Below, piece by piece: positions 2,983 to 13,645 of a stretch of 14,469 nucleotides of DNA. Each line of letters starts with the position of its first letter. The first letter of the stretch is position 1. The translations under genes and the position numbers were made by a program. Source of the stretch: a virus; the UHGV virus genome UHGV-0142781, one strand, 5' to 3'. The notes beneath the pieces were generated by a model, which was given only the letters and a program-made list of their open reading frames with translations, was not told where the DNA came from and did no database searches.

Positions 2983-4818
2983 ATGAGCAATTCAAAATAC
3001 ATTAATTTAGATGCGAGAATAAAAAAACTAAAAGAAGTTGTTAAAGATTTAGACACAAACACTTTAGCAACCTACTCTTTTTGGGAAATGTACAAATTTG
3101 GTACATTAGGTCAAAAAATTGAACTACAATCACCAGCACGACAAATCTTATATCTTTTTGGGATTGCATGTTCATCTGCTGAACCAACCGAACCAACTGA
3201 TAATGTTGAGGGTAAGATAAAACAAACAGTAGAGATCCTAAATGATATTTTTACAAAATATATGTTGGCGTACTTTCCAACCAAAGATGATTTAAAATCT
3301 GGATTAGAAGATGAATGGCATAAAGTTAGAGAAGTTGCTATGCCAATGTTTTCAAACTACTTTTTTGAAGGGTTAAAAGTTTCCACTGAAAACTTCAAAG
3401 GGATCATAAAAAATTATTTCAATGGTTTTGAAAATGAAATAAAAACACATTTTGGCTTAGATCACCATGAAATGGTAGAAATTTTAAATCTCATTGGTGA
3501 GCTTATACAGAGCAAATATGACAGATTCCGTGAAATAATGGATACATTAAAAGACGAACATGAGAAATTTAAAGAGAATAATTTTGAAAAACATGAAGAT
3601 TTTATAACATATATGGATGACATGAGGGAGCGTACAAAACATTTAGCACAAGAATTTCATGACTTCCTCAATGGGAGTGTATCATTCAAGTTTGATTCAA
3701 TAAGATGTAAACTTGGTGACGATGTCGTTGATAGTTTTATAAAAGCTTTCGTTACAGAGCGTGGAAACTCATCCGAAATCAAATACATTACTGATGAGAA
3801 TCCATTTTCATATAAACCGATAGTAACTGTAAATAATCTGGATTATATGCTCCCTTCTGCTAACGCAGCTTATGAAGCTATCATTCTTAATCTTGAAAAG
3901 TTTTTTAAAGAGTCAAAACACAATGATAAATTTAGAAAAGCCCGAGACAACAGGCTGGAACATGAGACTTTTTGCACCTTTAGAAATTTCTTCCCTGAAT
4001 CAACTACAATACTTGAAAGTGTATTTGAAACAAACAAATCCCATAATGAACATGATCTGATTATTTTCCATGATAAAACGATTCTTATTGTAGAGGCTAA
4101 AGCATCACCACGCCGCGCTCCATTGAGAGAACCAGCCAGAGCATACATTAGAATTAGAGATGATTTCAAACGTAAATCAGGAATACAAAGCGCATCTGAA
4201 CAAGCAAATAACTTAAGAAATTTAATCATTAATAATGAAAAAACATCATTATATGATAAAAAAGGTAATTTACTATATACCATAAATCGTTGTGACTACG
4301 ACAATATATATTGTATATGTGTCACTAAAGATGATTTCGGAATGCTTGCTACAAATTTAACTTTAATGTTAGAAAAAAAAGAAGATGAACCCTACCCTTG
4401 GGTTATTTGTATTCAAGACTTGAAGTTTTATTTTGATTGCCTTAAGGAAATAGATTTGGATCATGACTATTTCTTAAATTATATTCGTGAAAGAATAAAA
4501 ATACACGGCAAAGCAACGGCATGTGATGAGCTTGAATATGCAGGTGCATACTTGAATTATGGTGGTTTCGATTTCATTAATAAAGAAGTAAACTCTAACG
4601 TTTGTCTTGATATCTCTGAATCACGAGTATTCGATGAAATCCATATCGAAAAAGTTAATGGCAGGAAATATGTTCACCAGATTAAAAAACCTACTTACAG
4701 CATTTTAAATAGAGATAAATTAATTTCTTCTTTAAATTTCAATCACTCAAACAAAGATGCAAAAAAAGCAAAATCAAAAAGAAAGGAACAGAAAAAATCC
4801 AGAAAAAGAAACCGTTAA
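2983..4818 (+). CDS. Cargo protein with central PD-(D/E)xK-like nuclease motif and poly-basic C-terminal tail; candidate defence effector
   Basis: 611 aa, strongly AT-rich. Residues 356-373 read EHDLIIFHDKTILIVEAK (D-x12-ExK, nt ~4048-4101). C-terminal 23 residues are almost all K/R/S. No Walker A motif. Confidence 0.85.
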   Translation: MSNSKYINLDARIKKLKEVVKDLDTNTLATYSFWEMYKFGTLGQKIELQSPARQILYLFGIACSSAEPTEPTDNVEGKIKQTVEILNDIFTKYMLAYFPTKDDLKSGLEDEWHKVREVAMPMFSNYFFEGLKVSTENFKGIIKNYFNGFENEIKTHFGLDHHEMVEILNLIGELIQSKYDRFREIMDTLKDEHEKFKENNFEKHEDFITYMDDMRERTKHLAQEFHDFLNGSVSFKFDSIRCKLGDDVVDSFIKAFVTERGNSSEIKYITDENPFSYKPIVTVNNLDYMLPSANAAYEAIILNLEKFFKESKHNDKFRKARDNRLEHETFCTFRNFFPESTTILESVFETNKSHNEHDLIIFHDKTILIVEAKASPRRAPLREPARAYIRIRDDFKRKSGIQSASEQANNLRNLIINNEKTSLYDKKGNLLYTINRCDYDNIYCICVTKDDFGMLATNLTLMLEKKEDEPYPWVICIQDLKFYFDCLKEIDLDHDYFLNYIRERIKIHGKATACDELEYAGAYLNYGGFDFINKEVNSNVCLDISESRVFDEIHIEKVNGRKYVHQIKKPTYSILNRDKLISSLNFNHSNKDAKKAKSKRKEQKKSRKRNR

Positions 4819-4872
4819 CAAAATATCCTTTTGACGAATTCAAACCAACTGAACATATGGAGAAAATAAAAC

Positions 4873-6228
4873 ATGAGAATGACCGCCCCATTAAAATCAT
4901 TTTCTGATGGATTTTGTGAGAATGACGACATTTTTGAAAGAAAAAAACTTCACGACATTATTATGCGAGTTGCTACTAACGCGCCTGATAAAAGTTTAGT
5001 TTTAGCATTAGATGATAAATGGGGTAATGGGAAAACTTCATTTGTAAAAATGATGGAATCAGAAATAAGCAAAAAACATTCCGATGATTTCGAAGTCATC
5101 TATTTTGATGCATTTAAAAGTGATTATCAGTCGGATCCATTTGTAGCGTTAACTTCCAATATTTATTCGTTGGTTAGTAATGAAGAAGGCAAGCTAAAAA
5201 CATTAGGTGAAAAATTATTAAGTGCTGGTAAAAAACTAGGAGCTTCATTCCTTTTAAATGGTGCGAAGTTTGCAATCAGTACTATTTCAGGTGGGATGGT
5301 TTCTGGTACTGTAGTCGAAAAGGCAAGTGATACAATATCAGAATCCATATCATCACCTGTAGAAAAATACATAGAAGAAAAGATAAAAGCAAGTGAGAGT
5401 GAGTTTGCTACTATTGAGCAATTTGGAAATTTGTTAACTGAGATATACAAAGAAAGTGGAAAGAAAATATTTTTTATAATTGATGAATTAGACCGTGCAC
5501 GACCTGATTTTTCATTGGATTTATTAGAAAAGATAAAACATATATTCTCAGTAGAGGGTATTATTTTTCTATTGGTCGTCAATCGCGAACAATTTGAAAA
5601 AAGCATTGAGTCTCGATATGGCAATATAAACTCAAGATTGTATCTCAATAAATTTGTTCATTACTGGTTTTCGCTTCCCAAAACAAGCTGTTTATCTGAT
5701 GGTTGCTTAAATGGATATACTTATTCAACTATAAAACGATATTTACTTTCCATTGATAATGGAAACGACTTATTAAGTAGAAATGGTCCGCTTCTTAATA
5801 CACTATCATTGCTTTTGGAAATAAATGGAGCTTCTTTGAGAGAGGCGGAACGCTGTTACTCGGTATTTTCGGTTATCGAAGATGTCAATAAAGTAAACTA
5901 CTATACAAGTGATGCATATAAAGTAGCTTTGGGACTTGTTGTTTTCCTGAAAGTACATAACTCACAGTTGTTAACTGAAATTGTCTTAAAAAAAATCGTG
6001 TTAAAAGAAGCGATAGCCAAGCTTTTAATATACACAGTTCATCACCACAATATAATCGAAGCTCAATTCATTGAATATATCTTAAAGTACCATTACGCAA
6101 CAAATGAAGAATTAATAGAAGAAAGGAAGCAAAGAACATACTCTGATATAGAAGGTGGATATGGTCGAAGAACTCCCCTATTAGAAGGCATGTTTAAAAC
6201 AGTTGAGGGGTTTGATATTAGTTCTTAA
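4873..6228 (+). CDS. KAP-like P-loop NTPase; candidate defence partner
   Basis: 451 aa, AT-rich. Walker A-like DDKWGNGKTSF (res 47-57, nt 5011-5043) and Walker B FFIIDELDR (res 200-208), about 150 residues apart with a hydrophobic stretch between, as in KAP NTPases. 54-bp gap after the upstream gene, same strand. Confidence 0.85.
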   Translation: MRMTAPLKSFSDGFCENDDIFERKKLHDIIMRVATNAPDKSLVLALDDKWGNGKTSFVKMMESEISKKHSDDFEVIYFDAFKSDYQSDPFVALTSNIYSLVSNEEGKLKTLGEKLLSAGKKLGASFLLNGAKFAISTISGGMVSGTVVEKASDTISESISSPVEKYIEEKIKASESEFATIEQFGNLLTEIYKESGKKIFFIIDELDRARPDFSLDLLEKIKHIFSVEGIIFLLVVNREQFEKSIESRYGNINSRLYLNKFVHYWFSLPKTSCLSDGCLNGYTYSTIKRYLLSIDNGNDLLSRNGPLLNTLSLLLEINGASLREAERCYSVFSVIEDVNKVNYYTSDAYKVALGLVVFLKVHNSQLLTEIVLKKIVLKEAIAKLLIYTVHHHNIIEAQFIEYILKYHYATNEELIEERKQRTYSDIEGGYGRRTPLLEGMFKTVEGFDISS

Positions 6229-6319: not shown

Positions 6320-8932
6320 TTATTTTGGGTGACTACCATCCACACCCGCCAGCATTTTTTGATACTCCCCGACCGGATCAAACCGCAGGCGCGTGGCATC
6401 AATACCGTGGTTATCACGCAGACGGTCCCATAATTTATTCACCGTCCGTGACTCATCGAGTAATTGACGCGTTATCAACTCGCCGCCAGCACTGCCCCGA
6501 TAAACTTTGCCGCCAATCTCCAGACGGCTCCCCATTAACAGCGAAACAGCCTGAATCTCTGAAATCTCAACCGAACACAACGCCGCATCAGCCAGCAGAC
6601 TGGCAACCTCAGGGGCAAGCGCTGCCCGCCTGGCTTTTTCAGCCGCCGATCTGGCCTCGGTTTTTTTAACGGCAGAACGCCAGGCAACATCTAATTCGCT
6701 CCCTGGCTCATAAGGTGATCCGCTTTGCCGCCTTTTGAATGGTGCTTCACGTAGTCGCCGCATCAATTTTCGCCGCGTTGGCTGGTCCATATTTTCAAAA
6801 TCGACGATTTCCTCTTCTGATTCTTCTGTCATACCCTCCACATCACGCGAAAAATCGGTGATTTTTTCGTCTTCCGTAGAGTTATTGACAGAACTCCAAG
6901 CGTCGCCGGTTGGCGACGGCAAAAGGTCAACCCCCAAACCGGGGCCGTTTTTGGCCTCGGTGGTAGCTTTAGATTTGGCGCAGATTTTCCACTTAACCAG
7001 ACGGGTACAAATACGGGAGGCATCACCCAGACGCGGCGACCAGACCCCGAAAACCTTTTCGGGGATCTCACAATAAGCATTCATTTCATCAGCTGGCTGA
7101 TAGGCCAGACGGACGACATAGTTTTCTCGCGGGATCAAAACCCCACCCTGGCGGATGATGTAGGTAGCAAAGCACCCGACATCGGCAGCGGCGCAAACCG
7201 CATCCATTGCAGGATCCACAAGCAACGGCGCACCGCGTTTGAAGGTATTGTCAATTTTCTGGCGGGTCGTGATTTGATTGCTCAGTTTGCGCAGCTCGCG
7301 GTAAACCGATATGGGCGGCTGTCCGATAGGCTGAAACTGGCGGATACGGTGAAGCGATGCCCAGGCCATTGCATATTTGGCGGTTTCATTCAGCGGCTTG
7401 CCGCTTTCGTCGTCCAGTTCACCGGCCAGCGCGTGGCCGTCGATATTCTTCGAAATGTATTTAGCGATATATGCCGTTGCCGACCCTTTCCGTGGGTCCA
7501 TTTTTTTTGACTTGAAACGAGCACCGGTATTGCGGCCCAGCTCATCGCGGTCTTCCGCAATGAAGTAGGCGCGAAGGATCGCAACCGTGGCTTTGACTTG
7601 CTCTTGTGGCATAAACAGCAACGCGTGCCAGTGTGGTGTCCCATCGTGATGCGGCTCGGCGACACGGAAGCCATAAGGGCGCAAATCTTCGCGTTTCAGT
7701 TTGGCGGTTGCACGGTTCCATACACGGCATAAATAGCGCTGCGCCTGGGCGACGGTGGAATGATTCCATTTGGCATTATGGTGGCCGGACGCAATATTAC
7801 TGTGATATTTCGACGGGCAAGTGATGGTCAGGAAAATACCAACATCGCCGCGACTTTGGGCGACAAGTTCAACGCCAGCCATTCTGGTCATAAGCTCATG
7901 GCGACGAATAGCCGGGTTAGACGTGGATTTATTAATCATTTCCTCAAGCGACGAAACGTTGCCGTCTTCGTCTACCAGTTCATGACTTTTGAAAAAATCC
8001 CGGTTTTTACGGCGCTGTTCCTGCCACTCGATCAGGCTGGAAGCGCTAACGTAGGCGTGCGCTTTTTTATTTACCGCGCCAACAGCACGCAGCTGGTTCT
8101 CGCGCCAGTCACAACGCAAGCGCCAGATTTTTCGCCCCCACCAGTCAGGCGAAGCCATACGCAAAATGGCCGTGCATATGCGCTCGCGTTCCCACGGCGC
8201 ATACCATGCAGGCGGCACAATACGAAGCGCCAGCATTTCTCGGCCCAGGTGGCAATAAAGCCAGTCCAGTTCTTCGACGTTCATGTCGGAAACATTCCGC
8301 CCTAGGGCTTCGCATTCCGTCCCCAGCATTTCAGCCATGCGGCTGGCGATCTCATTAGCGGCGCTTAGTGCATCCCGCTTTGTGAAATCAGCCAGACGTT
8401 GCCAGCGCCCGAACCAGTACGCGGCCAGTTCGCCGGTGATATCAGGCGAAACACCTTGCCTTGTGCGTACAACATCAAGACGCAGCAATGATTTTTTCAC
8501 GGTTCCCATAAGAAAATCATTGGTGTGTCTGGTTTCACGGTTGACCCGTAACCACTCAATTTTTTTTCGCCAGACTTCACGAATGAAGAACGGCTCTGCT
8601 AATAAACGCGCTTCGACACCTTCCGGCGTATTGGTCCAGGCTGCCGTCGTAGATTTGGCGGCTTCCATTTCCTGCCGGATTAAATTTTGATGGGCGGCCA
8701 GTGGCAGGCCGCACGGTTCGTACCTGTCCAGCGCCTGGATAAGCGCGTTACGGTCCCGCACCTCGTCGGGGTTGTAACCGGCGTGTCTGAAGATGTGATC
8801 GATGTGTTTTTTTACGGCAGGATGATGCGCCACCGCCCCGGCAAGCGGGGCGATTTTTTTCGGTTCGTAGGTGTACAGGCCAACAGCTGGGCGCGGCGCG
8901 TTCCAGGGCCATGCAAAAGCTGTGTCAGACAT
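6320..8932 (-). CDS. A: Replication initiation protein (P2 gpA family rolling-circle endonuclease)
   Basis: About 870 aa at the expected position upstream of the cargo slot; identified by size, synteny and general resemblance to gpA. ORF track starts at a GTG at 8950; the ATG at 8930-8932 (MSDTAF...) is the more likely start. Confidence 0.85.
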   Translation of the reverse strand: MSDTAFAWPWNAPRPAVGLYTYEPKKIAPLAGAVAHHPAVKKHIDHIFRHAGYNPDEVRDRNALIQALDRYEPCGLPLAAHQNLIRQEMEAAKSTTAAWTNTPEGVEARLLAEPFFIREVWRKKIEWLRVNRETRHTNDFLMGTVKKSLLRLDVVRTRQGVSPDITGELAAYWFGRWQRLADFTKRDALSAANEIASRMAEMLGTECEALGRNVSDMNVEELDWLYCHLGREMLALRIVPPAWYAPWERERICTAILRMASPDWWGRKIWRLRCDWRENQLRAVGAVNKKAHAYVSASSLIEWQEQRRKNRDFFKSHELVDEDGNVSSLEEMINKSTSNPAIRRHELMTRMAGVELVAQSRGDVGIFLTITCPSKYHSNIASGHHNAKWNHSTVAQAQRYLCRVWNRATAKLKREDLRPYGFRVAEPHHDGTPHWHALLFMPQEQVKATVAILRAYFIAEDRDELGRNTGARFKSKKMDPRKGSATAYIAKYISKNIDGHALAGELDDESGKPLNETAKYAMAWASLHRIRQFQPIGQPPISVYRELRKLSNQITTRQKIDNTFKRGAPLLVDPAMDAVCAAADVGCFATYIIRQGGVLIPRENYVVRLAYQPADEMNAYCEIPEKVFGVWSPRLGDASRICTRLVKWKICAKSKATTEAKNGPGLGVDLLPSPTGDAWSSVNNSTEDEKITDFSRDVEGMTEESEEEIVDFENMDQPTRRKLMRRLREAPFKRRQSGSPYEPGSELDVAWRSAVKKTEARSAAEKARRAALAPEVASLLADAALCSVEISEIQAVSLLMGSRLEIGGKVYRGSAGGELITRQLLDESRTVNKLWDRLRDNHGIDATRLRFDPVGEYQKMLAGVDGSHPK

Positions 8933-9146
8933 TGGATGCCCCGCTATCACCCTCCCGCTGGGAATGTTTTTCGATTAGCGGGTCGAGTAACACATTGAAA
9001 GAAATCAACAGCGTATTTGCGGCTTCACTTCCGGCGAGAACACCCGCGAACGTTGCGTGTGCAAGGGCCAGTGTTTTGGCTTCGTTAAGCGCAGCCAGTG
9101 CGCCGCGCTGGTATTCCGAAAGACCGTTATTAATTTTGTTAGCCAT
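8925..9146 (-). CDS. Small hypothetical phage early protein
   Basis: 73 aa; its ATG overlaps the dam stop (TGATG at ~9144-9148), suggesting translational coupling; position matches the small ORFs before A in P2. Confidence 0.6.
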   Translation of the reverse strand: MANKINNGLSEYQRGALAALNEAKTLALAHATFAGVLAGSEAANTLLISFNVLLDPLIEKHSQREGDSGASNV

Positions 9147-10111
9147 CAGAAGACCACCTCGTCAGCCGTCCCACCCCACACGGAATAACCAGCACAAGGG
9201 CCACAGTCAGGACAGCACCCACCACCTGCACGACGACAAGTTGCACAGACTTTGAGGACGCCGATCACTTCACTGGCGGCCCCTCTGGTAATGGCGTTCG
9301 CGCTGACAGAACGGTTAACGCTGATTTCCTGGAAGTTGAAAGCGCGATAAATCTCGCGGGTAGATGGGGTGTCGCTATTGGACAGGATCACCGGCGAACC
9401 AGTAAGGCGGTTAATATCCAGCAGGGCGGCAGCTAACTGGCGATGCTCTTTAATCCCAAACGGGGCGGTGTGGTATTGGGTGAAATTAGCGGTTTCGCTT
9501 GTTGGCAGGTATGGCGGATCGCAGTAGATAACCGCGTCACTACCAATCATAATTTTTAACGTGCTCTGGAAATCGCAGCACACGAAAATGGCTTTCGTGT
9601 CGTTAGCTTTTTCAGTGAATAAACGGATCTGTTCTTCCGGGAAGTAAGGCGGGGTTTTGTGTCGCCCAAAGGGAACGTTATATCCACCCTGTTGGTTGTA
9701 GCGTACTACGCCGTTATATCCGTGACGGTTCAGGTAAAGAAATTGTGCTGCACGAAGAATCTTGCCCGTGTCCGGTCCGTCCTCAAACACATTGCGCGAT
9801 GACAGAAGGTCATAGGCGCGGGCGTTGAAATCATCGCGGATCCACTTATAGCCGTCTTTATCGCCGTACACTTTAAACAGCGGGCGAGCAGCGTCGATCA
9901 CCGCATCAGGCCAGCGGGTTATCTGGCGATACAGGTTAATTAAATCTGGGTTGATATCACCCAGGATATAACGGCGATATTCAGTATTGAGGAAAACAGA
10001 AGCACCGCCGACAAACGGTTCCACCAGGCAATCGGCTTTCGGCAGAATCGTTAGCAAATCAGGCATAACCCGGCCTTTGCCACCGGGCCATTTAACGAGA
10101 GATCGAATCAT
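9146..10111 (-). CDS. dam: DNA adenine methyltransferase (Dam family) with Cys-rich C-terminal extension
   Basis: N-terminal KWPGGK, EPFVGG and catalytic DPPY (res 198-201) motifs; GGAGAAAG RBS. C-terminal about 35 residues carry six Cys (CATC...CC..C..C). Confidence 0.9.
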   Translation of the reverse strand: MIRSLVKWPGGKGRVMPDLLTILPKADCLVEPFVGGASVFLNTEYRRYILGDINPDLINLYRQITRWPDAVIDAARPLFKVYGDKDGYKWIRDDFNARAYDLLSSRNVFEDGPDTGKILRAAQFLYLNRHGYNGVVRYNQQGGYNVPFGRHKTPPYFPEEQIRLFTEKANDTKAIFVCCDFQSTLKIMIGSDAVIYCDPPYLPTSETANFTQYHTAPFGIKEHRQLAAALLDINRLTGSPVILSNSDTPSTREIYRAFNFQEISVNRSVSANAITRGAASEVIGVLKVCATCRRAGGGCCPDCGPCAGYSVWGGTADEVVF

Positions 10112-10181: not shown

Positions 10182-10571
10182 TTAATTGACTGCGTTATCT
10201 GGCGCGGGTGGTTTGTCGCGTATCGCCTGAATTTCGGCGCGTGGTGCTGCATAGTCCTTAAATTCCCACGGCATTGATGCTGCAAATTCGGAAAGGCGCT
10301 TAATGCCCATCAAAAGGCACGTTTGCTCCTTTTCGGTTAGATTTCCGTAAGTACAACCCAGCTGTTTAGCGGTCAGCTTCGGCATTCCGGCTATGTATCT
10401 GGACGCATCGTTTGCCAGGATGAAAATCACCTTTTTACAGGCATCATCTAGGCGGTTAAAACGGGTTGCAGTGTCGTTCACGCGTGAGGCGTTCAAACTG
10501 GCTTGTAGCCGCGCCCGTTGCTCTAAGAACTGGCGGCGGCCTGGTTGTTGTTCTGTCTTATCCATCAACAT
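10182..10571 (-). CDS. Hypothetical phage early protein
   Basis: ORF track starts at a GTG at 10577; the ATG at 10569-10571 has a GGGGAGG RBS 5 nt upstream. About 129 aa, phage-typical GC, same strand as the early operon. Confidence 0.6.
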   Translation of the reverse strand: MLMDKTEQQPGRRQFLEQRARLQASLNASRVNDTATRFNRLDDACKKVIFILANDASRYIAGMPKLTAKQLGCTYGNLTEKEQTCLLMGIKRLSEFAASMPWEFKDYAAPRAEIQAIRDKPPAPDNAVN

Positions 10572-10586
10572 AACCACCTCCCCGAA

Positions 10587-10808
10587 CTACGCAAAGATGC
10601 CCATTAAGCGGGAAAACCAGCGGCGCTTATTACGCGGGCGCGACATGAACGGTACACGGCAGTTTTTAACAAATTGAACATCTGCCGCTTTCGGCTGGAA
10701 GAACCGCCCGTCCGGGGTTTCAATCCAGCCGCGTTGATGCTGACGGTGGGTGATCTGCTGGCCGTGCGTGAGCAGACTAGCGAGTGAAGGGCATTGTGTT
10801 AATTCCAT
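10587..10808 (-). CDS. Small hypothetical phage early protein
   Basis: ORF track gives 10587..10880; the internal ATG at 10806-10808 (MELTQCP...) is preceded by GGAG. GC-rich, same strand as neighbours. Start uncertain. Confidence 0.45.
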   Translation of the reverse strand: MELTQCPSLASLLTHGQQITHRQHQRGWIETPDGRFFQPKAADVQFVKNCRVPFMSRPRNKRRWFSRLMGIFA

Positions 10809-10946
10809 GTTGATCTCCGTCATATTGAAAAGATGCCGGGATACGACCCCACGCCCGGCGCGTGTTTCCTGTGATAACATCGCTATGCCTGTGTAACTTT
10901 GAGCAGTGAATCAGGCATAACAATCACCAACACAGAAGGAGTTGTA

Positions 10947-11426
10947 ATGAAATTCAATGTGTTTTTTAAAAAAGACCACGGATCACACTGGGTGCTTTCC
11001 GATGATTCCCCCCTCTTTGAAAGTCCACTATTTGAAACAAGACCTAAAGCCATTGATGACCTTGAGAACTTTGTAGGCCTTATGGAATCGCCAATCTTTA
11101 TTAAGGCTGGTGACGATATTAATTCTGGCGATACAGAAAACTGTCCATCTGTAGTAATTTCTTTAAAACAGCATGAATCGCTATGGGGCTGGGAATTATT
11201 TATCTCAAAAAATGGACAACTTTCTAAAGTTACCGAAAGTTCAGGTAATGGCTTTGACTCATTAGAATTAGCAAAGCAAAGTGCCCAGTTTTTCCTTAAT
11301 GCCATTATCGACGCTCCTATTCTGGATCAAGCCGATGTCGCTATCCCCGGCATGCACTTCTCAAAATCTTTCGAGGAAACGCACCACATTGGTGACACTC
11401 ACCCATCTAGTAAATGGTTCAAATAA
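10947..11426 (+). CDS. AT-rich hypothetical protein (moron), antisense to the early operon
   Basis: ATG at 10947 with AGGAG RBS at 10936-10940 (ORF track extends to 10899). 159 aa, visibly AT-richer than neighbours; no recognisable motifs. Confidence 0.7.
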   Translation: MKFNVFFKKDHGSHWVLSDDSPLFESPLFETRPKAIDDLENFVGLMESPIFIKAGDDINSGDTENCPSVVISLKQHESLWGWELFISKNGQLSKVTESSGNGFDSLELAKQSAQFFLNAIIDAPILDQADVAIPGMHFSKSFEETHHIGDTHPSSKWFK

Positions 11427-11430
11427 TCCA

Positions 11431-11778
11431 TCACTGTGGTGTTATCGTTTTTCTTGTGCGAGGTGGTACATCTCGCACGGTTTCTTCATCAACAATTAAC
11501 TCATAAACTCTGATGCTGCTATCACCTTTTGATACGTCATCAAATACCTGAAAAAGAAAACTCATGAATTGCTCATAAGTGACGCTGGGTTCAACATACC
11601 CACCAGTAACCTCAATTAATGGTGTTAGTCCTGAATTATCTGCTAACGAAACGCAGTCCAACTTATCCAAACGGAAAAAGTAATTACCGCAAGGTGTTCT
11701 TTTATCCTTAATCCGTATAAATACATTTGATAACGCTGTATGACTATCTGAGAGTTTAAAGATTTTTGCCGTGTCCAT
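11431..11778 (-). CDS. AT-rich hypothetical protein (moron) immediately downstream of cox
   Basis: 115 aa starting 22 nt after the cox stop on the same strand; its stop lies 4 bp from the stop of the convergent 10947-11426 gene. AT-rich relative to cox. Confidence 0.6.
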   Translation of the reverse strand: MDTAKIFKLSDSHTALSNVFIRIKDKRTPCGNYFFRLDKLDCVSLADNSGLTPLIEVTGGYVEPSVTYEQFMSFLFQVFDDVSKGDSSIRVYELIVDEETVRDVPPRTRKTITPQ

Positions 11779-11800
11779 TTTATTCAGCCCTGTAAGTTGC

Positions 11801-12076
11801 TTATGATGGATTGCCCAGACCCAACCACATTAACCACCCTTCCCTAATTTCCTTCGGGCGGCTCTCATACGCCATTTTCATTCCGTTGTTCCATGCTGGG
11901 AGGTAGACCCAGTACTCACCTGCCCGCCCGGAAGTTGATTGCGGATCGGTCATCTCAACTACGGGTAGCTTTCCTTTTTCAATCATCCCCTTCACCGCTG
12001 CCGGTGTTTTACCAATGAGTTTTGCGAACTCCTGATATGGGACGGCATCTGTGCTTAACGCGATCTGTTTAACCAT
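11801..12076 (-). CDS. cox: Cox (excisionase / lytic-switch regulator)
   Basis: 91 aa; translation tracks my recollection of P2 Cox over most of its length (AIPYQEFAKLIGK, DPQSTSGRAGEYWVYLPAWNNG, ESRPKEIREGWLMWLGLG). GAGGG RBS. Confidence 0.9.
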   Translation of the reverse strand: MVKQIALSTDAVPYQEFAKLIGKTPAAVKGMIEKGKLPVVEMTDPQSTSGRAGEYWVYLPAWNNGMKMAYESRPKEIREGWLMWLGLGNPS

Positions 12077-12192
12077 TTAAGGCCCTCACAAGTTTAAGAA
12101 TCGTCACCAATGGCTTATAGTTGCCTTTGATGTTCATTTCTAAACATCAAACAGTCTACATCTAAATCAAATGGTATTGAGATCTAAACACT
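12077..12192. promoter_or_regulatory. Immunity switch region between cox and C (early and repressor promoters with operator repeats)
   Basis: Three direct repeats TCTAAACA (12139-12146), TCTAAATC (12161-12168), TCTAAACA (12183-12190), exactly 22 bp apart. A TATAAG -10-like element on the minus strand (~12113-12118) faces cox. Confidence 0.6.
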
Positions 12193-12492
12193 ATGTCAAA
12201 CGCCTTAAACGAGAAAATTGTACTCATCAGAAAGTCTGAGTATCTCAGCAGACAGCAACTAGCTGATTTAACAGGCATTCCCTATGGCACTTTAAGTTAT
12301 TACGAAAGTGGTCGTTCTACACCGCCCACGGACGTAATGATGAGGATTTTGCAAATGCCCCAATTCAGCAAATACACGTTGTGGTTTATGACCGATCAGG
12401 TTGCTCCCGAAGCCGGTCAGATAGCACCGGCCCTCGCACACTTTGGGCAAGATGTAACAACATCGCAGCACTCAGACCAAAAGATTGGTTAA
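12193..12492 (+). CDS. C: Immunity repressor C
   Basis: 99 aa; near-collinear with my recollection of P2 C (EKIVLIRKSEYLSRQQLADLTGIPYGTLSYYESGRSTPPTDVMM...), same length. Confidence 0.9.
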   Translation: MSNALNEKIVLIRKSEYLSRQQLADLTGIPYGTLSYYESGRSTPPTDVMMRILQMPQFSKYTLWFMTDQVAPEAGQIAPALAHFGQDVTTSQHSDQKIG

Positions 12493-12637: not shown

Positions 12638-13645
12638 ATGACAATTAAGAAACTCGATGATGGTCGTTATGAAGTGGATATCAGACCTGCAGGGCGCAAC
12701 GGAAAGCGCATCCGCAGGAAATTTGACAAGAAAAGTGAGGCTGTAGCTTTTGAGAAACACACTCAATACAACCATCACGATAAAGAATGGCTGGCTAAAC
12801 CGACAGATAAGCGGCATCTGTCTGAATTAACAAAAGTCTGGTGGGATCTGAAAGGCAAGCATGAAGAACACGGAAAATCCAATTTGGGTAAGATTGAAAT
12901 CTTTACCCGGATCACTGATGACCCTTGCGCGTTCCAGATAACCAAAGCGCTTATTAGCCAGTACAGCATGACTCGCAGAGGGCAAGGCATAAAACCGGCC
13001 AGTATTAACCGCGACCTTACCTGCTTGAGTGGTATGTTTACTGCGCTAATTGATGCGGAGTTGTTTTTTGGCGAACACCCTTTCAGAGGGATGAAAAAGC
13101 TCAAGGAGCAGAAACCAGAAACAGGCTATCTGACGCAGGAAGAAATAACATTGTTGCTTGCCAATCTTGACGGGGACAACAAGAAAATCGCGATTCTCTG
13201 TTTAAGTACCGGCGCTCGATGGGGTGAGGCCGCGAAACTGAAAGCTGAGAACGTAATACAGAATCGGGTGACGTTCGTTAAAACAAAGACGAACAAACCA
13301 CGTACTGTCCCTATCTCTGAGGAAGTAGCTGTAATGATTGCGGGTAAAGGGTATCTGTTCCCAGATGCCTCATACCCGAAGTTCAGGCGAACAATGAAAG
13401 ATGTAAAACCAGATCTACCGGACGGGCAAGCAACTCACGCATTGCGTCACAGTTTTGCTACCCACTTTATGATTAACGGCGGGAGTATCATCACCTTGCA
13501 GAGAATACTGGGACATTCACGGATAGAGCAGACAATGGTCTATGCGCACTTTGCCCCGGAGTATCTTCAGGATGCTGTTTCACTCAATCCGCTACGTGGT
13601 GGTGTTGACTCCCAGAGTGTCCACACTGTGTCCACAGTAGGGTAG
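12638..13645 (+). CDS. int: Tyrosine integrase (P2 Int family)
   Basis: 335 aa; N-terminus MTIKKLDDGRYEVDIRPAGRNGKRIRRKFDKKSEAVAFEK and C-terminal HALRHSFATHFM...LGHSRIEQTMVYAHFAPEY match P2 Int as I recall it. GGGGG RBS. Confidence 0.95.
   Translation: MTIKKLDDGRYEVDIRPAGRNGKRIRRKFDKKSEAVAFEKHTQYNHHDKEWLAKPTDKRHLSELTKVWWDLKGKHEEHGKSNLGKIEIFTRITDDPCAFQITKALISQYSMTRRGQGIKPASINRDLTCLSGMFTALIDAELFFGEHPFRGMKKLKEQKPETGYLTQEEITLLLANLDGDNKKIAILCLSTGARWGEAAKLKAENVIQNRVTFVKTKTNKPRTVPISEEVAVMIAGKGYLFPDASYPKFRRTMKDVKPDLPDGQATHALRHSFATHFMINGGSIITLQRILGHSRIEQTMVYAHFAPEYLQDAVSLNPLRGGVDSQSVHTVSTVG

Follow-up and report, generated by a model that had tools for sequence, protein, structure and literature searches.

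Some prophages carry defences with built-in self-immunity, of which BstA with its aba element and gp29/gp30 of mycobacteriophage Phrann are examples: a lysogen factor that would harm the phage itself is neutralised by a phage element during its own lytic growth. In the P2-like coliphage 186, the promoters pR and pL are convergent, and when the lytic promoter is active its counterpart is suppressed. The present study concerns two small AT-rich genes, ORF159 and ORF115, that lie tail to tail between cox and fil in the virus genome UHGV-0142781; the whole stretch of DNA analysed, hereafter the window, is 14,469 nucleotides long, and it represents the end of a P2-like prophage that holds the regulatory and early genes. 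Accessory cargo in P2 is known from hotspots at tin/old, between gpA and the portal gene, and at Z/fun in the tail region (Rousset et al. 2022, PMC9122126; iLund4u, 10.1101/2024.10.15.618418; PMC13586616), and the P2 hotspot literature also places one near the repressor and att site. The interval between integrase and primase ranks as a minor hotspot, which accounts for 8% of P2 defence systems (PMC13586616). This literature names the interval as a whole and describes neither the regulatory platform nor the antisense slot reported here, and a cargo slot between cox and fil has apparently gone undescribed until now. The slot resembles the tin/old and Z/fun hotspots in its AT-rich, rapidly swapped cargo, its conserved phage flanks and its presumed expression in the lysogen. 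It differs from them in its location within the early operon, where it separates cox from fil, in its antisense cargo facing a variable early gene, in a conserved platform of about 115 nucleotides (nt) with covarying dyads, and in containing no known defence gene.

The original prediction had singled out the interval as an AT-rich foreign insert holding two open reading frames (ORFs) of 115 and 159 amino acids (aa), located in the early lytic operon with the plus-strand gene antisense to it. These statements proved accurate and the coordinates given for both ORFs and their stop codons were exact. The two genes are convergent, with four bases (11427-11430) between the stops. The GC content is 40.0% for ORF159 and 38.2% for ORF115, as compared with 50-55% for the flanking genes, Dam included (cox 50.4%, fil 55.0%, gpA 54.2%), and the GC content at third codon positions is 0.36 and 0.31, respectively, versus 0.55-0.56 in the neighbours. 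ORF159 and ORF115 matched phrog_9021 (E 2e-110) and phrog_10410 (E 2e-78) from end to end, both families without an assigned function. Homologues of each gene ranged from 97% down to about 30% identity, with ORF159 relatives spanning 31-98%, and the pairwise ratio of nonsynonymous to synonymous substitution (dN/dS) was 0.1-0.35 for both, with synonymous sites near saturation. Because of these full-length matches, the depth of the homologue families and the low dN/dS, the two ORFs are more than chance reading frames; they are genuine genes under purifying selection. A 140-aa ORF antisense to ORF159 (10883-11305, minus strand, with AGGAG-N8-ATG upstream) was not accepted as a gene. Of 11 ORF159 homologues, 10 keep this frame open over 122-158 codons, and in six of them it exceeds synonymous-codon shuffles at P<0.07, but it was rejected because the shuffles themselves were already long, the starts were not conserved and stops occurred in one homologue (L015). 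The open frame could be a by-product of amino-acid composition, or of selection against polarity in the early transcript.

The pair was rare. It was present in 19 of 5,426 complete E. coli genomes, and the exact ORF159 and ORF115 sequences are recorded in Citrobacter portucalensis as adjacent hypothetical proteins. Neither family was found in 185,579 species-representative genomes, 50,697 GenBank phage records or 72,556 plasmids, and a literature search found no mention of the proteins or their PHROGs. In Salmonella phage SI7, which matches the window at 94.7% identity over fil and the next gene downstream, fil directly follows the phage's own cox and there is no cassette. Judged by this distribution and by the foreign composition, both families are tiny, orphan and confined to chromosomal P2-like prophages, and the possibility that they are conserved core genes of the P2 family can be set aside.

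The insert proved to be one occupant of a wider slot. A pattern scan of IMG/VR for the stem-loop upstream of ORF159 returned 34 loci, about 25 of which were P2-like contigs with the full platform. The same platform precedes at least seven unrelated types of cargo, none of known function: 1) ORF159-type proteins, 2) helical proteins of 91/101 aa (phrog_32592), 3) a 39/46-aa peptide with a 160-aa membrane protein (phrog_6315), 4) a 174-aa protein (phrog_5286), 5) a 92-aa protein, 6) proteins of 53/65 aa (phrog_14615) and 7) proteins of 56-59 aa. The early gene facing the cargo also varies, and may belong to the ORF115 family, to a family designated Y (motif RRYYxNGxHAGN) or to one of several others, and the position of the slot within the early operon differs among prophages. 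Comparison with the Citrobacter variant placed the boundaries of the swap just past CAGGCATAAC (~10921) and inside the hairpin at the 3' end of ORF115 (~11455). Unrelated cargo thus occupies a position set by conserved flanks, as in a hotspot; of the signals expected of a moron, atypical composition is present and conserved promoter-like and terminator-like elements are predicted. On these comparisons, the interval qualifies as a mobile cassette of accessory genes, set in a cargo slot that is conserved among P2-like early operons. The original prediction was therefore right to see a foreign accessory insert, although its suggestion of a toxin-antitoxin pair did not hold, as considered below, and the pair sits in a wider conserved slot.

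The most conserved part of the cassette was the platform of about 115 nt upstream of ORF159, which comprises two overlapping dyads, a candidate extended -10 element and a stem-loop, and is better conserved than the proteins, being kept across loci whose proteins share only about 30% identity. By eye, all three paired elements were present in each of 15 distinct platform variants. Dyads A and B share bases and are therefore mutually exclusive; an H-type pseudoknot formed by both was rejected, since a one-base linker cannot span a 6-bp stem, leaving the two as alternatives. Compensatory changes were seen in dyad A (GCCGAG/CTCGGC, CCGAT/ATCGG, ACCGGG/CCCGGT) and in dyad B (CCATG/CATGG, CCCTG/CAGGG, CGCG/CGCG), and a strict search recovered both dyads in 11 of the 15 real variants versus 14% of shuffles. 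The TG and TA columns of the extended -10 element did not vary in any aligned locus, even where the cargo was unrelated, and the element, which was not reported by a consensus -35/-10 scan, lies 4-5 nt before the stem-loop; we infer that it drives ORF159. The stem-loop is the minimum-free-energy structure on folding and shows double compensatory changes (TGCGCCTG/CAGGCGCA, CATGCCCA/TGGGCATG, GTGCCTGG/CCAGGCAC, TTTTGCCCG/CGGGCAAAA); the strict search recovered a stem of 6 bp or more from 11 of 15 real variants as compared with 4% of shuffles, and a U-G pair in lineage L066 fits the plus strand only. It starts about where transcription from the extended -10 element should, so it would form a 5'-terminal hairpin on the cargo mRNA. 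In the window and the corresponding regions of loci L004-L066, the loop often holds a GGA or ACAGGA motif. Readings of the platform as a LexA box or as a P2 late promoter (TGT-N12-ACA) were rejected by eye, both for wrong spacing and lack of conservation across loci. No Rfam 15 family matched the platform or terminator in the window at gathering thresholds, and the region 10500-12250 gave two chance-level matches (E >=3).

Since transcription of the cargo is predicted to start downstream of the dyads, these would be transcribed only in the early, minus-strand RNA, or act in DNA. They could control termination or read-through of the early RNA, bind a protein or form a DNA hairpin; a palindromic protein-binding site is another possible reason why the two half-sites change in concert. 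This raises the question of whether the cassette is mainly a transcriptional device, in which convergent transcription from the platform, together with the dyads and stem-loop in the early RNA, tunes how far transcription reads through from cox to fil and the replication genes, while the cargo is secondary. Such a role would explain why the platform exceeds any cargo in conservation and is kept with unrelated cargo, and it is in keeping with the location of the dyads and with about 620 nt of early mRNA between ORF115 and fil that has no conserved coding frame. In the window, dyad A is followed on the minus strand by a short T-run (U in the RNA), but most variants lack it. Moreover, ORF159 is under clear purifying selection and has a conserved C-terminal motif, phage SI7 functions with cox directly before fil, and the slot is apparently empty in two prophages (L024, L027), so that we regard a mainly transcriptional role as unlikely.

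ORF159 also has a predicted terminator. An intrinsic-terminator-like hairpin with a T-tract sits within the last ~20 codons of ORF115 and has a folding z-score of -2.7. Every ORF159 locus retains the hairpin, the stem of which shows a change from A-T to G-C. On the minus strand the hairpin is followed by an A-rich run, so that it should stop the ORF159 transcript and not the early transcript. With its own promoter-like, Shine-Dalgarno and terminator signals, the plus-strand gene appears to face the early operon as an independent unit, which agrees with the antisense or collision geometry proposed at the outset.

The tail-to-tail order of the two genes was kept, with stops 1-20 bp apart, across prophages with different immunity and replication modules. 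The pair lies before fil in the window and after fil in a Serratia prophage (L028), and another locus with the pair (L007) has no early gene annotated as Phage_Cox. In the Serratia prophage, the ORF115 domain forms the C-terminal half of a 214-aa protein. Prophages of Proteus and Providencia carry a distant subfamily (~31% and 35% identity) with the same pairing, as does lineage L066. All fetched loci were scanned with hidden Markov models (HMMs), counting those long enough to judge, and every ORF159-family member found (26 clusters from Enterobacteriaceae, Serratia, Proteus/Providencia and L066) was convergent to a gene with an ORF115 domain. Relatives of ORF115 without ORF159 also occurred (L013, L023, L024, L027). 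A Citrobacter relative, fused to 70 extra residues, lies beside the unrelated 91-aa helical cargo; two others (L023, L026) adjoin a 39-aa peptide and a 161-aa membrane protein, and those in the apparently empty slots of L024 and L027 have no cargo at all. The pairing is thus asymmetric: ORF159 invariably came with ORF115, whereas ORF115 can stand alone or beside other cargo. The notion of a tight gene pair is borne out by this joint travel across diverged prophages, but only in one direction.

The protein encoded by ORF159 is acidic (isoelectric point 4.9), has no hydrophobic segment and is expected to be cytoplasmic. Its AlphaFold2 model, computed from a 15-sequence alignment, had a predicted local distance difference test score (pLDDT) of 84.9 and a predicted template modelling score (pTM) of 0.79, and consists of two beta-beta-beta-alpha(-beta) repeats, residues 2-53 and 68-127, followed by a tail of lower confidence. 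The tandem beta-beta-beta-alpha units form a pseudo-dimer in the model, the arrangement typical of YegP/DUF1508 proteins. The resemblance of the modelled structure to YegP/UPF0339 (PF07411; e.g. PDB 2K49, 6Q2Z, 3BID) is at the level of the fold only, without membership at the sequence level: PF07411 had no match at E<10 in any of 15 family members, and an hhalign comparison of the ORF159 profile with E. coli YegP gave a probability of 0.5%, which is not significant. YegP, itself a protein without an assigned function, also lacks the C-terminal tail, which is the best-conserved part of the ORF159 family (AP[IV]LD...IP..F...F....I.D.HPS); residues D127, I133, F138, F142, I148, D150 and H152-P153-S154 do not vary even at 31% overall identity, and the tail has the look of an active motif or of one that binds a partner. 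In the Menshen defence system, tandem DUF1508 domains are proposed to act as sensors and to be Whirly/PC4-like binders of single-stranded nucleic acid (PMC12065111), and homologues of yegP are located downstream of the immune regulators capK and capS (PMC13373217).

The ORF115 model (pLDDT 74) is mostly beta with one long helix, and no fold relative or family was recognisable. An exhaustive profile search of 1.84 billion proteins gave just 15 representative clusters, some with N-terminal extensions, and revealed no informative domain fusions except to the Y motif, which resembles part of the portal. Members of the Y family are small proteins encoded in the early operon of related prophages, opposite the cargo slot, and carry the motif RRYYxNGxHAGN(I/V); carriers are L035, L041, L065, L033, L013 (1237-1788) and protein P0038. 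The motif copies a segment of the phage's own portal (ATIFRRRYYNNGAHMGFILY in the window portal, 1546-2607; phrog_68 positions ~190-237), and it is fused to the ORF115 domain in both orders, in the Serratia protein of 214 aa and in a Citrobacter protein of 183 aa.

Neither Pfam nor PADLOC gave a match for ORF159, ORF115 or their families; searches of Pfam, PHROGs and PADLOC with both proteins, all family members and the alternative cargo found only function-less PHROGs, and a search of PADLOC-DB 2.0 with the alternative cargo gave no match save DrmC at E 0.007 for the 91-aa protein. Solved structures searched by sequence with both families gave no match.

Seven of the 19 E. coli genomes, of the Shiga toxin-producing (STEC) type, have an IS3-family element interrupting ORF115, with ORF159 intact in each. 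The insertions were at two sites (window ~11466-11469 and ~11713) and in two orientations (L002 6933-8146, L003 7189-8402); one of the sites falls within the terminator hairpin. These disruptions bear on the idea of a classical toxin-antitoxin addiction module, in which one protein would be a toxin and the other its constitutive antidote. The small size, close apposition and foreign composition of the two prophage genes do invite that interpretation. However, the genes are convergent with separate promoter-like signals, not the co-transcribed autoregulated operon of a type II system; the terminator of ORF159, predicted to work in one direction, lies within ORF115; Pfam, PADLOC and the solved-structure sequence search revealed no toxin or antitoxin domain; ORF115, which lies in a repressed early operon, is lost to insertions with ORF159 intact; and several prophages carry ORF115 without ORF159. 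A module of this type has been largely refuted and is, in our judgement, very improbable, to the point of being effectively excluded.

The regulatory context suggests how the two genes could be used. The early operon runs leftward on the minus strand, so that plus-strand genes between cox and gpA are antisense to it. In the gap between cox and the C repressor gene, the promoter scan found face-to-face promoter-like sites (minus strand TTGACA-17-TACCAT, plus strand TTAAGA-16-TATAGT) that match the Pe/Pc arrangement of P2. The pair is probably a lysogen-expressed accessory gene and an early-lytic partner. ORF159 would be a moron with its own signals (extended -10, 5' stem-loop, Shine-Dalgarno sequence and terminator) pointing against the early operon, and would be made in the lysogen while the C repressor keeps Pe off. 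Once the prophage turns lytic, convergent transcription from Pe would shut ORF159 down, because the early transcript has to pass through it on the way to fil, Dam and gpA. ORF115 comes directly after cox in the operon and would therefore be made only early in lytic growth. The reading that we favour, though tentatively, is that ORF159 acts as an exclusion factor and ORF115 as its early-lytic antidote. The YegP-like and possibly nucleic-acid-binding ORF159 would interfere with the lytic development of related incoming phages, and ORF115, expressed early, would allow the resident phage or any phage carrying ORF115 to escape. An effector that is never found without its antidote, and an antidote that is sometimes alone, are what a defence with self-immunity predicts. 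The logic would be that of BstA/aba and Phrann gp29/gp30, but ORF159 and ORF115 have no homology to either, the putative antidote is an early-operon protein, and convergent transcription would aid the switch. The likeness to coliphage 186 lies in the opposed transcription units of a P2-like phage; the opposing unit here is a cargo gene ~700-1300 bp downstream of Pe, not a lysogenic promoter, and the interference is suggested by the geometry.

Several observations are in favour of an exclusion factor with an antidote, 1) the purifying selection on both genes, 2) their foreign composition and rarity, 3) the order kept across different modules, 4) the conserved platform and 5) the apparently unidirectional terminator; from the literature, the DUF1508 sensors of Menshen (PMC12065111), the yegP genes near capK/capS (PMC13373217) and the hotspot in the interval (PMC13586616) point the same way. 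Other considerations weigh against it. There is no homology to defence, anti-defence or toxin-antitoxin families in Pfam or PADLOC. The timing of expression we infer from the geometry and established P2 regulation, and the exclusion activity and an interaction between ORF115 and ORF159 are likewise conjectural. Cargo and neighbour assort fairly freely in the wider slot; the 160-aa membrane cargo, for instance, occurs beside either ORF115-type or Y-type neighbours. The association of ORF159 with ORF115 could be inherited linkage, the two being tied physically by the terminator in the 3' end of ORF115, and the ORF159 lineages are not independent samples.

The same facts lend themselves to an explanation by linkage only, the main rival, which we consider a real but somewhat doubtful possibility. 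ORF159 would then be an independent lysogen-expressed moron serving lysogenic conversion, defence or another host-directed role, and ORF115 an unrelated variable early gene concerned with host takeover or anti-defence, the two sharing no more than adjacency and a terminator region. In addition to the points just listed, the at least seven unrelated cargo types behind one platform, the variable convergent neighbour (ORF115 family, portal-like Y family and others) and the occurrence of ORF115 relatives with three different cargo types or none are what such linkage would produce. It does not readily explain why ORF159 relatives down to 31% identity, at varied positions in the early operon, still adjoin an ORF115 domain, nor why the pairing persists where the N-terminus of the neighbour has been remodelled (L028, L066), when other cargo evidently does undergo replacement of its neighbour.

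The features of the window are collected in Table 1. The longest ORF at fil encodes 97 aa (10587-10880), and a 73-aa form starts at 10808 with GGAG upstream. The shorter form is favoured by the Fil domain and by the RefSeq annotation of an E. coli homologue, and the 24 codons upstream of its start, which overlap the platform, are probably non-coding.

Table 1. Coordinates of the cassette, its predicted signals and the neighbouring prophage genes in the window
Feature	Position	Strand	Details
Cassette interval under study	10809-11800	both	
ORF159, 159 aa	10947..11426	+	ATG 10947, TAA 11424-11426
ORF115, 115 aa	11431..11778	-	ATG 11778, TGA (complement) 11431-11433; first gene after cox in early lytic operon
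Overlapping dyads A and B	10835..10864	unassigned	upstream of cargo promoter
Dyad A	10835-10840 / 10854-10859		GCCGGG / CCCGGC, GCCGGG-N13-CCCGGC
Dyad B	10850-10854 / 10860-10864		CACGC / GCGTG, CACGC-N5-GCGTG
Extended -10 type promoter element for ORF159	10872..10880	+	TGATAACAT (TGnTAnnnT); predicted
Stem-loop	10884..10919	+	TATGCCTG-N20-CAGGCATA; at or near predicted 5' end of ORF159 mRNA
Shine-Dalgarno sequence of ORF159	10936..10941	+	AAGGAG, 5 nt before ATG; AGGAG/AGGAA conserved in alignments
Intrinsic-terminator-like hairpin and T-tract for ORF159	11454..11490	+	core GTGCGAG/CTCGCAC, 11454-11480; promoter/terminator scan
cox, first early gene	11801-12076	-	context; Pfam Phage_Cox, E 6e-43
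Pe-like promoter for cox	12199-12171	-	promoter scan
C-type repressor	12193-12492	+	
Integrase	12638-13645	+	
fil-like cell-division inhibitor gene	10587-10808	-	next early gene downstream of cassette; Pfam Phage_186_Fil and phrog_816
phrog_7428 gene	10182-10577	-	
Dam methylase	9146-10111	-	
gpA replication nickase	6320-8950	-	

The first AT-rich insert of the window (2983-6228, 31.6% GC) lies between gpA and the portal gene, the classical tin/old position. It encodes a 611-aa protein with no PADLOC match and a 451-aa ATPase that matches PADLOC PDC-S20 (E 9e-72) and, more weakly, PifA and QatA. A related prophage in E. coli GN06156 (L067; 8741-9073, 10919-11884) is integrated between yegQ and yegR. 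The host yegP gene, after which the fold is named, is ~1.8 kb from the prophage end; it has no sequence similarity to ORF159 and its proximity looks like coincidence. An AbiH-family gene is found just after yegQ at that end.

Taken as a whole, the hypothesis is that P2-like prophages carry a further cargo hotspot in the early operon, with an antisense platform whose cargo is expressed in the lysogen and silenced on induction, and that here it holds a YegP-like exclusion factor and its dedicated antidote ORF115, a defence and self-immunity pair switched by the lysis-lysogeny decision. In this complete form the hypothesis is rather unlikely. Of greatest use is that a conserved platform and slot have been recognised, which opens the question to direct tests. 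The DNA signature TGnTAnnnT followed by TATGCCTG-N17-21-CAGGCATAA could be used to mine small uncharacterised cargo genes, and the YegP/DUF1508-like fold, which has no assigned function, would be placed in a phage setting where its role can be tested. Should ORF115 be an antidote, the pair would illustrate how a prophage escapes its own weapon. If the hypothesis is true, P2-like prophages, a main model for phage-borne defence hotspots, would gain a slot with a different logic, given by its antisense position in the early operon, its conserved regulatory platform and the early gene that faces it.

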